Source: a virus. Taken from it: 64,000 nucleotides of DNA. The notes under the pieces were generated by a model. It was not told the origin of the DNA. It did no database searches and saw only the letters and a program-made list of their open reading frames with translations. Of this stretch, positions 23,966 through 27,158 are shown in pieces. The position numbers and the translations under genes were made by a program. How positions within the stretch are numbered: position 1 is the first letter of the stretch; every line of letters begins with the position of its first letter. Where the stretch lies: positions 96,001 to 160,000 of IMG/VR virus record IMGVR_UViG_3300021399_000004. One strand, written 5' to 3'.

Positions 23966-24069
23966 GATGGACACCTCCAAATTTTTTTCTGTTCCCCCTT
24001 GGAACAATTGTATTATAGCATACATCATTCATCCTGTCAACCCCTATTTTACATCTAAAAATGCATTAG

Positions 24070-24089
24070 TTAGATGTTGAAACATCTAA
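24070..24089. repeat. 20-bp palindrome, copy 34
   Basis: Centre GA. It lies 29 bp from the -35 TTGACA (24035-24040). Confidence 0.95.
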
Positions 24090-24105
24090 TTACTGTTTAA
24101 GGATT

Positions 24106-24143
24106 TAACTAATATTTAAACATCTAACTAATATTTAAACATT
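24106..24143. repeat. tandem 19-nt direct repeat TAACTAATATTTAAACAT(C/T)
   Basis: Copies lie at 24106-24124 and 24125-24143. The first copy, read into the start of the second, spells the palindrome half-site AAACATCTAAC; the second has the diverged AAACATTTAAG. Confidence 0.85.
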
Positions 24144-24428
24144 TAAGAATAAAATTCATCGCTGGAAGAGTTGATTAAAAACTGTAAAATAAAGTCAAGC
24201 GCGCAAAAATTATAATAGTTAAGTTCGTCAAATAAGGTCTTAATTTCACTTATTATGGCACAGATTTTAAAATAGAATGCGATGGCTACTGGTAGATAGG
24301 TGTAATAAAAAGATTTCCTTGATAATATATTTTTCTAACTGTGGGTGCTATCTTGGAAATGATATTATATTATAGTTTACAATTATTGTTAATTGAGTTT
24401 TGGGAAAATTAAATATGTTAAGATTAGA

Positions 24429-24448
24429 TTAGATGTCTAAACATCTAA
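24429..24448. repeat. 20-bp palindrome, copy 35 (one mismatch, TTAGATGTCTAAACATCTAA)
   Basis: Located in the AT-rich non-coding region with no clear promoter next to it. Confidence 0.9.
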
Positions 24449-24690
24449 CATGAAATAGTTAAATGTTGTAAAATTTTATATTAGTTGAGGGGGAAATGAA
24501 TGATATTTAAAATTAATAAAATATTATATAGATATGGGAATTGATTATTTGAAAATTTTTATTCCAAATAAAATAGCATTGAAAATGAAATATGCCCAGC
24601 TCGCATATAATTATAAAAATAATATTTTTTCTTCGGTCGATGCAAGCAGTTGGCGATAACAAAATATAATAATAAATGATAATAATAATT

Positions 24691-24719
24691 ATTATACCAC
24701 ATTTTGGGATAAAAGTCAA
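24691..24719 (-). promoter_or_regulatory. orphan cassette promoter (no ORF downstream)
   Basis: TTGACT (24714-24719), N17, TGGTATAAT (-10 at 24691-24696). Confidence 0.6.
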
Positions 24720-24727
24720 GAGACTAA

Positions 24728-24747
24728 TTAGATGTTAAAACATCTAA
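24728..24747. repeat. 20-bp palindrome, copy 36
   Basis: Centre AA. It lies 8 bp from the -35 at 24714-24719. Confidence 0.95.
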
Positions 24748-24926
24748 CTTGAAAATGAAATTGTAGGATTTTAAATTAGGAATTTTTATAATTTTATTTG
24801 AATAATAATTTAAAATAAAATTATGTTATTTTGCCAGCTCGCATTATTATGTTTATAGGAAAACATTCTTCGTTAATAATATTAAGTATCTGATATGAAA
24901 AGAAAATAAAATTAAAGATATTATTT

Positions 24927-24955
24927 ATTATACCACGTTTCAGGAAAAAAGTCAA
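24927..24955 (-). promoter_or_regulatory. orphan cassette promoter (no ORF downstream)
   Basis: TTGACT (24950-24955), N17, TGGTATAAT (-10 at 24927-24932). Confidence 0.6.
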
Positions 24956-24963
24956 GTCTTAAA

Positions 24964-24983
24964 TTAGATGTTTAAACATCTAA
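24964..24983. repeat. 20-bp palindrome, copy 37
   Basis: Centre TA. It lies 8 bp from the -35 at 24950-24955. Confidence 0.95.
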
Positions 24984-25182
24984 CTTGGAAATGAAATAAG
25001 ACTGTTATGGGAGAAAATTTTTTATATATTCAACTTATATATTTTGTCTATTTAAAAATAAAATAATAATGTAATTAAAATAATACGAGCTTCAGCTTGC
25101 ATATCATTTCGGGTTTTACTCTTGCTTTCGTGGATCAATGATAACATTTGAAAACTAAATTGAAATCAAAAAGTAATTATCT

Positions 25183-25211
25183 ATTATACCATATTTTGGG
25201 AAAAAAGTCAA
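25183..25211 (-). promoter_or_regulatory. orphan cassette promoter (no ORF downstream)
   Basis: TTGACT (25206-25211), N17, TGGTATAAT (-10 at 25183-25188). Confidence 0.6.
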
Positions 25212-25219
25212 CCTTAAAA

Positions 25220-25239
25220 TTAGATGTTCAAACATCTAA
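25220..25239. repeat. 20-bp palindrome, copy 38
   Basis: Centre CA. It lies 8 bp from the -35 at 25206-25211. Confidence 0.95.
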
Positions 25240-26148
25240 CTTCAAAATGAAATAACATCTAACTAAATATTTAAACATCTAACTAGACATATAAATATTA
25301 AAATAATTTAAAACTGCTTTAAGAATTTTAGGATTATGGCAAATGAAAAGAACATTCCAAAATAAAATAGTGATTGAAATGAAATTAACATTTAATATTT
25401 GGGATTTTTATTATTTAATTTTATCTAAGAGAAAAAATAGTGCTAGAAAATAAAATTATATTAAATTTTTAGAGTAAAAATTATTTCAAAGACATCTAAC
25501 AAGGCAGATGTATTATGGGATCTATAGTTGTAATATTTTGTTATATAAAAATATTACAATTAAATTTCAAATTGATAGAATTTAAAGAGTGCTTTCAGTT
25601 TTATTTTTAAAATATAATTATGGGTTTTGGTCTGTTTAAAAATATATTAATAAAAATAAAATAAAATGAAATGAAATTAAATCATGATTAATTAAAGTTG
25701 TATACTATTTAATTTATTATATAGAATTTATACTTCATTTTAAATTTAGAAGTTTTAGGACTACTATTATAAAATAAAATGAATAGAAAAAATAAATAAA
25801 ACAAAACGAAATTAGAATTAATTTTAAAATACTAATTTACATTATAATATTGGGATTTAAAAGATAGCATATTAGTTATAATTTTTAAATATTTTATAAA
25901 ATGAAATTGTAAAAATTTAGTTTTGGGTTTTTTCTTTTTCTTTTTTTAATTCTAAAAAATATTTAAAAATAAAAATGAAATTATAGGATTAAGCAAAAGG
26001 TTTAAAATAATTATTTTTTTATAGTTTTTAAAAATGAAATTGTGTTTTGGGATTTAGCATTTTTTTTATAATCTTAATAAAAATAATAAAAATAAAATAA
26101 AATTACTTTACTATGTTTTGATTTAACTATACATTATTTTACTGTATA

Positions 26149-26470
26149 TTATATATACACATATATGTATATACATATGTATATATGTATATATGTATAT
26201 ATGTATATGTATATGTATATATGTATTATATGTATATATGTATGTATATATGTATACATATATGTGTATATGTGTATATATATGTATATGTATATATGTA
26301 TATGTATATATGTATATATGTATGCATGCATTATATGTATATGTATATGTATATGTATATATAGACTTGTATAAATATATGTATATACATATAAATATAT
26401 TTGTACATACATGTATATATAAGTATATTTAATTATATGTATATATTTATGTATACTTACATCTAACTAT
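26149..26470. repeat. imperfect (TATATG/TATACA)n alternating pyrimidine-purine microsatellite, about 320 bp
   Basis: A nearly unbroken Y-R alternation built of TATGTATATA-type units. The three overlapping ORF-track entries here are translations of the repeat. Confidence 0.9.
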
Positions 26471-26588
26471 GTATAAATGCATAAAAAGATCTATATGTAT
26501 ATATGTATAAATATAAATAATTATCAATATTTTTATTTATTTATATGTAAGGAATGAATAAATATATTAATAATCATAAACAATATAC

Positions 26589-26621
26589 ATAATAATAATA
26601 ATAATAATAATAATAATAATA
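26589..26621. repeat. (AAT)n trinucleotide repeat, about 11 units
   Basis: Direct reading of the sequence: aataataataataataataataataataataat. Confidence 0.9.
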
Positions 26622-27158
26622 AAAATCTTTTATTGTAAAATCTATCATTATTATAAAGCGACAAATATTATAATGTTTATTATAAATATTAATATTACTT
26701 ATTATATTTTGATTATTTAATTTATTTTAATTAGCAGCTGCGAAAATTTTATTAATAATATATTATTATCGCTGATCTATTTATCTCTTGTTCATTAATA
26801 TATTATAATAACTCACGTGCCTGACACTGGCTATGTATAAAGTTAAGAAACTTTTCCATAAAGGCGCCCTTCCTACATAGTTCTTTGAAGAAGAAGAAGA
26901 TGAATAACTAAATAATCTTAACATCTAAAAAGATACATCTAAAAATTCTGAGTTTGTTTAGCTCTTTTATTTATAAACATAAAGTAGCTTGCTCTTTTGG
27001 ATATAAATGTAATGTGGCTTATCGGTTATTGTTAGATGTGTTAAAAATTATATGATGGTTATTTTTCAGCTCGTTTTTAGATCATTTTTTATTGCGACTT
27101 TATTCAACTGTATATGCACACATCTAAATAATGAGTTAGAAGAACCATACAAAAAGTC

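Follow-up and report, generated by a model that had tools for sequence, protein, structure and literature searches.

A 3-kb AT-rich, gene-free block in the early array of a ruminant-gut phage, possibly a replication origin or control region

Arrays of short repeats beside extremely AT-rich DNA near a divergence of transcription are a standard signature of replication origins. The primary origin of T7 (promoters phi1.1A and phi1.1B with an AT-rich region), T4 oriF and oriG (a promoter with an unwinding element) and lambda ori are all activated by transcription. Here we describe a block of 3.1 kb, at positions 24041–27140 of a 64,000-nucleotide stretch of viral DNA (positions 96,001 to 160,000 of IMG/VR record IMGVR_UViG_3300021399_000004; the whole stretch is hereafter called the window), which is free of credible genes, filled with short repeats and furnished with promoters that have no gene of their own. 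The block resembles the T7 and T4 origins in that strong gene-less promoters are embedded in AT-rich DNA, and differs from them in that its promoters are of the host sigma-70 type, are joined to palindromic operators and face away from the AT-richest core. With origins made of iterons and AT-rich DNA (lambda ori, P1 oriR and the pSC101/R6K type) it shares same-orientation short repeats beside easily melted non-coding DNA, and two relatives of the phage (loci L197 and L208) have dense, regularly spaced repeats. In contrast to those origins, the window has irregularly spaced repeats of only 9 bp, shows no enrichment of DnaA boxes and offers no recognisable cognate initiator, and the block far exceeds the usual length of 0.2–0.5 kb.

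Larger regions offer further comparisons. In the PLE satellite of Vibrio cholerae, a 2.7-kb repeat-filled non-coding region between gene clusters carries an experimentally shown origin (PMC7145576). The block is likewise a gene-free region on the kilobase scale with several repeat families, but the PLE, to which it is unrelated in sequence, possesses defined iterons and a RepA_N initiator alongside, and the function of the block is putative. The P1 incA iteron array and E. coli datA are binding-site sinks, and the block is similar to them as a cluster of regulator sites that controls no gene (five palindromes, 11 half-sites and four promoter heads without an open reading frame, ORF); unlike them, its sites are mixed with promoters and microsatellites, and titration is only putative here. 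Finally, the A+T-rich control region of insect mitochondrial DNA is a single large non-coding block of 80–90% A+T that combines origin and promoters. Tandem repeats, (TA)n-type microsatellites, variable length and conservation of position but not of sequence are common to both, although a different domain of life and different machinery make this an architectural analogy only. We propose, with a probability that we put at about 40%, that the block is an origin of replication, or an unwinding region, equipped with operator-controlled promoters.

Composition and anatomy of the block

The block sits within a leftward early array that extends from 29 kb down to 6.1 kb, about 2–5 kb upstream of the sigma-like gene at the head of the late operon. 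In the array the operator palindrome TTAGATGT-N4-ACATCTAA occurs 38 times (6135–25239; 0 expected by chance), about once per gene and nearly always upstream of a minus-strand TTGACA-N17-TATAAT promoter. The cassettes are monocistronic, each consisting of operator, sigma-70 promoter, a GTTCC...GGAAC hairpin in the 5' untranslated region, a GGAGG-type ribosome-binding site, a small ORF and a terminator, and their ORFs are GC-rich (45–64%) compared with the AT-rich scaffolding between them.

At 19.6% GC (A 1269, C 246, G 362, T 1223), the block stands apart from its surroundings: 1-kb windows within it have 23.5%, 17.9% and 17.0% GC, as against 33–64% elsewhere in the window. A preliminary description of the sequence had called it a 3-kb, about 80% AT non-coding region, and this is borne out, with no credible ORF in 24041–27140 under genetic code 11 or with TAG read as glutamine or TGA as tryptophan. 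The longest ORFs, of 87, 79 and 69 amino acids, are repeat artefacts because they all lie inside a microsatellite, and the next (68 amino acids) overlaps a promoter. Stops occur every 9–13 codons across the six frames, recoding of TAG or TGA is without effect there, and peptides from the six frames gave only repeat-driven matches when compared with all related loci. The motif ATG-AAA-T was considered as a start of micro-ORFs and rejected on inspection, the reading frames being inconsistent and a Shine-Dalgarno sequence absent. Two other data sets indicate real DNA and not an assembly chimera: a contig from an independent sample covers 22277–25635, joining flanking genes to part of the block, and shows 2 differences, and near-identical pieces of the block occur in a separate sheep-gut study. 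Phage assemblies do break at about 25635 and 25919. At 85% likeness the block draws hundreds of unrelated AT-rich contigs, probably from rumen eukaryotes, and the microsatellite stretch (26100–26650) resembles human repeats.

The left part of the block carries three cassette heads, all on the minus strand and exactly where the preliminary description had placed them (24691–24747, 24927–24983 and 25183–25239). Read on that strand, a full head runs from ATTTCATTTnnAAG through the palindrome, an 8-bp gap, TTGACT and N17 to TGGTATAAT. In head 1 (24691–24761, ATTTCATTTTCAAG) the palindrome occupies 24728–24747, TTGACT 24719–24714 and the -10 element within TGGTATAAT 24696–24691; head 2 (24927–24997; palindrome 24964–24983, promoter 24955–24927) and head 3 (25183–25253; palindrome 25220–25239, promoter 25211–25183) have the same layout, and the heads are spaced 236 and 256 bp from start to start. 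Their promoters, at 24719, 24955 and 25211, score 11/12 with a TG-extended -10, and no ORF follows them. Unit 0, a weaker fourth head on the same strand (24364–24448), has the palindrome TTAGATGTCTAAACATCTAA at 24429–24448 and TTAACA-17-TATAAT at 24392–24364, again with no ORF downstream. A CRISPR array, or solitary units of one, was considered and rejected: the repeat periods are 236–299 bp or 8–20 bp, as against the required 28–37-bp repeats with spacers of similar length.

Downstream of the full heads, the AGCTG core that had been described as common to the units is present as GCRAGCTGR, always on the minus strand: GCGAGCTGG at 24596–24604 in unit 1, about 90 nt downstream of the -10, GCGAGCTGG again at 24834–24842 in unit 2, and GCAAGCTGA(AGCTC) at 25092–25100 in unit 3. 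The core has only five matches in 64 kb, three of which are these, and its distance from the -10 is fixed at about 85–93 nt despite the unconserved sequence in between; its AGCTGG is shared with a repeat motif of the family. The units end as described before, alignment placing ATTTCATTT(T/C)(C/G)AAG ahead of each palindrome.

Isolated ACATCTAA half-sites were found at 25255, 25275, 25492, 26459, 26921, 26935, 27032 (minus strand) and 27120, no more than a few bases from the positions first listed, and further ones at 23602, 24051 and 24120. All 11 fall within 23602–27127, and the sole other one in 64 kb is half of a one-mismatch palindrome at 15842. Two tandem arrays on the plus strand contain operator half-sites, one of 3.5 copies of a 19-bp repeat at 24080–24146 (AAACATCTAACTAATATTT) and one of 2.1 copies of a 20-bp repeat at 25254–25295. 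To the right of the latter, a degenerate repeat zone (25300–26130, plus strand) holds AAATGAAAT, AAATAAAAT and T(A/G)GG(A/G)(A/T)T in a single orientation, together with a variant inverted pair of half-sites at 25492–25512. These roughly 0.8 kb of degenerate units are built of two polar motifs, (A/T)TCC(C/T)A, whose copies are oriented 15:1, and AATTTCATTT. The repeats of the block are strongly polar: ATGAAAT is oriented 11:0 in favour of the plus strand, AAATAAAAT 11:1 and TRGGRWT 8:0.

The repeat AAATGAAAT has 13 exact copies in the whole window, of which 10 lie in 24583–26040, all 10 on the plus strand, compared with about 0.33 expected in the block. Right of the units, at least nine more had been counted, which was too many, since six are exact (25377, 25664, 25669, 25899, 25973 and 26032) and the others imperfect. 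The label "iteron-like" also needs a qualifier, because AAATGAAAT and the minus-strand ATCCYA belong to the early-promoter architecture of the family. The spacer of the promoter itself (TTGACTTTTATCCCAAAATGTGGTATAAT) is formed by ATCCCAAAA, and promoter spacers of relatives repeatedly contain TTCCC(R)AAA; in many relatives ATTTCATTT precedes the operator by a few bases, and in L197 it falls within the promoter spacer.

The degenerate zone is followed by a quasi-palindromic (TGTATATA)n-type microsatellite of about 370 bp (26143–26509), which is the GC minimum at 12% and a candidate unwinding element, and by an (ATA)n run at 26564–26626. The right part (26627–27140) contains the half-sites at 26921, 26935, 27032 (minus strand) and 27120, CAGCTC at 27067 and an island of higher GC at about 26800–26880; on the minus strand these last 0.5 kb read as four isolated half-sites and one CGAGCTG. 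The island, the only one in the block, includes an 18-codon ORF, MEKFLNFIHSQCQARELL (26798–26854, minus strand), with a GGAAGGG sequence resembling a ribosome-binding site 7 nt upstream, which could be a micro-gene or what is left of a lost payload gene. At the right edge of the block stands the intrinsic terminator (27158–27181, minus strand) of the upstream minus-strand gene at 27197–27400.

The orphan promoters had suggested a family of small non-coding RNAs, a suggestion that the transcribed bodies do not support. The three heads are 85–86% identical over 72 nt, whereas the bodies are 41–56% identical, compared with 55.6 +/- 4.5% for shuffled AT-rich sequence aligned in the same way, and have only the 9-nt core GC(G/A)AGCTG(G/A) in common. 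This contrast argues that what is maintained is a DNA site with its promoter and not the transcript. The three bodies gave no fold signal relative to shuffles (z -0.36, -0.71 and -0.53), and a 120-nt sliding fold scan of both strands gave no signal beyond the palindromes, the flanking terminator and an inverted repeat at 25470–25629. No intrinsic terminator was predicted on the minus strand within 24100–27140. Rfam searches of the window and the relatives, under gathering and E-value thresholds, found nothing in the blocks beyond sub-threshold matches of miRNA families to the TG/TA repeat, and ARAGORN found no tRNA or transfer-messenger RNA. A sponge for CsrA acting through GGA motifs was likewise rejected, since the bases on either side of GGA depart from the CsrA consensus and no credible promoter lies on the plus strand. 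Taken as sequence evidence, these results argue for a block that would act at the level of DNA and not as a family of small RNAs.

The promoters could nevertheless be productive as RNA, either as a stack (25211, 24955, 24719, 24392 and 24040) that boosts the 103-amino-acid gene at 23965–23654 or as sources of unstructured AU-rich RNAs serving as sponge or primer. All five are co-oriented with that gene, and no intrinsic terminator is predicted from 25183 to the one at 23634–23647, so that either version could operate. The 166-kb relative described below, moreover, has two ORF-less units that are GC-rich, terminated and well folded (z -2.7 and -4.8), which means that ORF-less cassettes can encode RNAs in this family. 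Against an RNA-level role stand the unconserved bodies, the missing structure signal and the lack of an Rfam family, and such a role would leave the right-hand 2 kb unexplained. Five metatranscriptomes (X7, X12–X15) from the same or similar samples yielded contigs on array genes and none on the block, weak evidence at a depth of only 2–6x, which is too shallow to establish absence. Overall we regard an RNA-level function as quite unlikely. The two units of the relative (L014 3591–3800 and 3246–3490, at the left edge of its AT-rich block) each have a promoter and a terminator, show no Rfam match and recur as a 95% variant in L035; the fold models make them candidate structured non-coding RNAs.

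Counterparts in related phages

Relatives were gathered from IMG/VR by a scan for the operator with a 3-nt spacer, followed by alignment of the sigma-like protein, which gave contigs of up to 190 kb and a comparison set of 65 non-redundant loci anchored on the sigma-like gene (designated here by L numbers). Most relatives have TTAGATGT-N3-ACATCTAA where the window has N4, and a scan of a metagenome collection for the N4 palindrome returned essentially chance matches and one relative. Within 7 kb upstream of the sigma-like gene, 21 of the 65 loci have a 400-bp window of at most 25% GC (10 of them at most 20%), with a median position of -3650. Clusters of the AGCTGG type occur in 23/65 loci (median -2489), clusters rich in TGTATA/TATACA in 12/65 (median -1997) and same-strand ATGAAAT clusters in 13/65; apparent AGCTT clusters in L167 and L003 are alanine-rich coding sequence and were discounted.

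The closest relative with such a block is the 166.6-kb record IMGVR_UViG_3300032038_000007, in which 1.45 kb of 21% GC lies at the equivalent place with operator cassettes around it. Its motif polarity, 19:0, is like that of the window, and only the cassette heads align between the two blocks. In L197, 8–12 (A)ATGAAAT(TG) repeats spaced 22–36 bp apart are followed by (ATT)n of about 10% GC, exactly where leftward and rightward transcription diverge, and about 12 CCAGCTT repeats form a separate group 1.7 kb off. The AT-rich block of L208 abuts 8–9 AGCTG repeats that include CCAGCTCGC, the core of the orphan units of the window. L161, which has the closest match to the sigma-like protein, shows AGCTGG repeats, a TGTATA-rich stretch and three 30-bp direct repeats in a divergent intergenic region of 0.7 kb. 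The comparison with related genomes proposed at the outset has thus turned up counterpart regions in the equivalent zone that keep element types and position but not sequence. Given that an AT-rich stretch and repeats of the AGCTGG and TGTATA types recur at the equivalent place, the block of the window would be an expanded local form; judged by sequence comparison, it is most probably a lineage-specific expansion of a conserved, repeat-rich non-coding control region located 1.5–5 kb upstream of the sigma-like gene.

The same comparison bears on the possibility that the block is satellite-like and largely non-functional, its heads having been duplicated by unequal crossing-over or slippage, its payloads lost and the remainder left to AT-biased decay and microsatellite expansion. 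Such a history would account for the gradient from intact units (24.7–25.24 kb) through degenerate ones (25.3–26.1 kb) to microsatellites, and for the polar motifs ATCCYA and ATTTCATTT being pieces of the early-promoter module. It would also fit a block that fails to align with that of the closest relative beyond the heads, ranges in length across the family between 0.8 and 3.1 kb, is missing from many relatives and breaks assemblies. However, its position is kept, its element types recur in lineages with only 50–60% protein identity, its orientation bias is strong, and its heads are held at near-consensus promoter strength by selection or gene conversion; moreover, 3 kb of junk is rarely kept by phage genomes. 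We therefore consider decay to be an unlikely explanation for the block as a whole.

L195 points to another explanation. Its equivalent region is a 2-kb non-coding stretch full of its own operator-like TTAAC-N6-TTAAC repeats and ending in (TGTA)n, from which it appears that the content of the block tracks the operator of each lineage. The block could accordingly be a sink or loading platform, at the DNA level, for the factor that binds TTAGATGT-N4-ACATCTAA and perhaps also for RNA polymerase, and could buffer or time the regulator of the 38-cassette array. Five full palindromes and 11 isolated half-sites lie in or beside it; palindromes number about 4 per kb in 24.04–25.3 kb, compared with about 1.8 per kb in the array, an excess that becomes about four-fold when half-sites are counted. 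The three 11/12 promoters with extended -10 lack an ORF, as do four heads overall, and heads are conserved where bodies are not. Such a sink is compatible with everything in the left 1.3 kb and with L195, and it could coexist with an origin. On the other hand, operators are few in the right-hand 2 kb, and the polar ATGAAAT and TGTATA elements are common to lineages with different operators and so need another explanation, which leaves a sink possible but doubtful.

The case for and against a replication origin

The preferred interpretation remains an origin or unwinding region, and under it the parts of the block would be related as follows. The (TGTATATA)n and (ATA)n runs, at 12–17% GC, would form an unstable core; AAATGAAAT, the AGCTGG cores and the operator half-sites, all in the same orientation, would be putative protein-binding repeats that flank it; and the three strong operator-controlled sigma-70-type promoters without a gene of their own would, when they fire, open or prime the AT-rich DNA. 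As expected of an unwinding element, GC content over 26.0–26.7 kb is 12–17%, the lowest in the 64 kb, and falls to a minimum of 12% over 400 bp at the microsatellite. Gene-less promoters amid AT-rich DNA, here the three that score 11/12, are a feature of origins of the T7 and T4 type. Relatives have AT-rich stretches and repeats at the same place, often between divergent units. It is the combination of repeats and an AT-rich stretch near a divergence, gene-less promoters and the precedent of the PLE that ranks this reading first, and we infer that replication may start at the block and may be activated by transcription.

Several observations weigh against an origin at this place. Searches of Pfam and PHROGs, including the Pfam matches of neighbouring array genes, recognised no initiator gene near the block. 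The spacing of AAATGAAAT is irregular, ranging from 5 to about 290 bp, which is unlike classical iterons, and the 19- and 20-bp tandem half-site repeats reach only 2–3.5 copies, dense regular arrays being found in L197 and L208. DnaA boxes are not enriched, TTATCCACA with at most 1 mismatch occurring 19 times in the window against 18.5 expected and never in the block. The promoters fire leftward into DNA of 18–23% GC, away from the microsatellite, and an AT-rich block is not universal (21/65 loci). In several relatives a promoter stands immediately ahead of the AGCTGG repeats, which would then be part of its transcript; this fits a function coupled to transcription and also permits RNA-level roles. 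GC skew flips sign at about 24.0 kb, but the direction of transcription and the foreign-looking, GC-rich genes at 27.2–29 kb confound this signal; contig depth is flat with no peak at the block, the measure being uninformative.

The block also has no dense AGCTGG cluster. The only one in the window lies about 18 kb away, at 5994–6053 on the minus strand, at the other end of the early array, where five copies of AAGCTGGA with a 9-bp period are accompanied by three copies of ATTTTCACTAC nearby. Viewed over 5880–6060, five TCCAGCTT repeats (9-bp period) and three ATTTTCACTAC stand between a helicase-like gene (4367–5788, TAG-recoded) and the first operator, and three relatives (L092, L160 and L132) have AT-rich regions with AGCTGG repeats at the equivalent end of the array. 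Judged by its sequence, this cluster is an origin candidate at least as good as the block. With AGCTGG or AT-rich regions at both ends, the early array seems to be bracketed by two origin-like regions. The origin proposed in the preliminary description is thus indirectly supported by the counterparts in relatives and held in check by the irregular AAATGAAAT spacing, the lack of a recognised initiator gene and the denser cluster at 5994–6053.

The phage, its early array and what the block may mean

The window is part of a large phage, and DNA runs from sheep, goat and bovine gut contain matching sequence. Megablast found no near-identical phage records. The capsid protein has only remote cultured or named relatives, namely phAss-1 (36%) and SPbeta-like phages of Enterococcus and Staphylococcus (25–32%). 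The phage is a TAG-recoded, distantly SPbeta/phAss-like inhabitant of the ruminant gut. Small contigs that bear the operator of the family were binned with metagenome-assembled genomes of Acutalibacteraceae, Oscillospiraceae and Bacillota, in agreement with the Firmicutes-style promoters and ribosome-binding sites. On the plus strand of the late, structural part (29106–64000), long genes appear only with TAG as a sense codon, the largest TAG-recoded ORF encoding 5623 amino acids (43389–60260, plus strand), while the leftward early array is written in the standard code; the 64-kb window contains no suppressor tRNA. In the late region of L195 (20981–21281) there is a group I intron (Rfam RF00028, 58 bits, above the gathering score). 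The paper on phAss-1 makes no mention of a comparable non-coding region (PMC10607447).

The late operon begins with the sigma-like gene (PHROG 5767), followed by genes for a YonG_N-domain protein and for terminase-like, portal-like and capsid proteins. Since it lies 2–5 kb upstream of the sigma-like, YonG-like, large-terminase and portal genes, the block was also weighed as a pac or cos packaging signal or as a genome terminus ahead of the terminase module; repeat arrays can bind the small terminase subunit. However, five unrelated early genes on the opposite strand intervene before the packaging genes, a similar AGCTGG cluster lies 23 kb away, and contigs run through the block, all of which makes a packaging function very improbable.

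To its left the block is flanked by the cassette of a 103-amino-acid gene (23965–23654, minus strand) and to its right by five minus-strand genes (27197–28974) of up to 64% GC, compared with 31–45% in the late genes. The flanking proteins, of 103, 67, 72, 103 and 282 amino acids, belong to no family in Pfam or PHROGs; the one of 282 (or 218) amino acids carries an E-x-K motif. The two 103-amino-acid proteins that bracket the block (23654–23965 and 27744–28055, both minus strand) are paralogues with 29% identity (E 4e-10) and a common C-terminal WNTN-(D/E)-YW motif. Throughout the family, TTCCC(R)AAA is kept inside the -35/-10 spacer of early promoters (the window, L142, L157, L148, L121, L147, L122 and L124); such a motif is unusual in the spacer of a sigma-70 promoter, and some factor may read it.

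In other lineages, perfect DnaA boxes (TTATCCACA) occupy the position of the operator (L199 3470–6842, L002, L003 and L004 about 9708–9866, L005 2668–2704, L198 7004–7047 and L236–L238). Those of L199 form triplets immediately ahead of early promoters, L002–L004 have 10 perfect boxes packed into 150 bp directly upstream of the sigma-like gene, and a GC-rich relative has 3 upstream of its homologue of the 103-amino-acid gene. The operator thus seems, from these motifs, to have been swapped between lineages (N3 or N4 palindrome, TTAAC repeats, DnaA boxes), a hint that some phages of the family may be regulated by host DnaA or may titrate it. In this light the block might be pictured as a decoy locus, a gene-free collection of consensus early promoters, operators, half-sites and polar fragments of the promoter core. 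It would soak up the phage's early-gene regulator and perhaps, in addition, RNA polymerase or some other DNA-binding protein of the host, thereby setting when the 38-cassette array gives way from early to late expression; its content would then co-evolve with the operator of the lineage, as palindromes here, TTAAC repeats in L195 and DnaA boxes in others. We judge that proposal distinctly unlikely.

The observation of the block is thus confirmed and its first interpretation partly supported, in that an origin is plausible and a family of small RNAs is not supported. Should the block be an origin or control region, it would offer a testable landmark for replication and early-to-late regulation in a large, uncultured family of TAG-recoded, SPbeta/phAss-like rumen phages of 130–190 kb, and it would show how duplication of a promoter-operator module can balloon such a region to 3 kb. 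Should it be junk, it would be a rare case of a phage that retains satellite-like DNA. The modular early array itself, with operators that differ between lineages and that in some of them are perfect DnaA boxes, is arguably a lead of greater interest.

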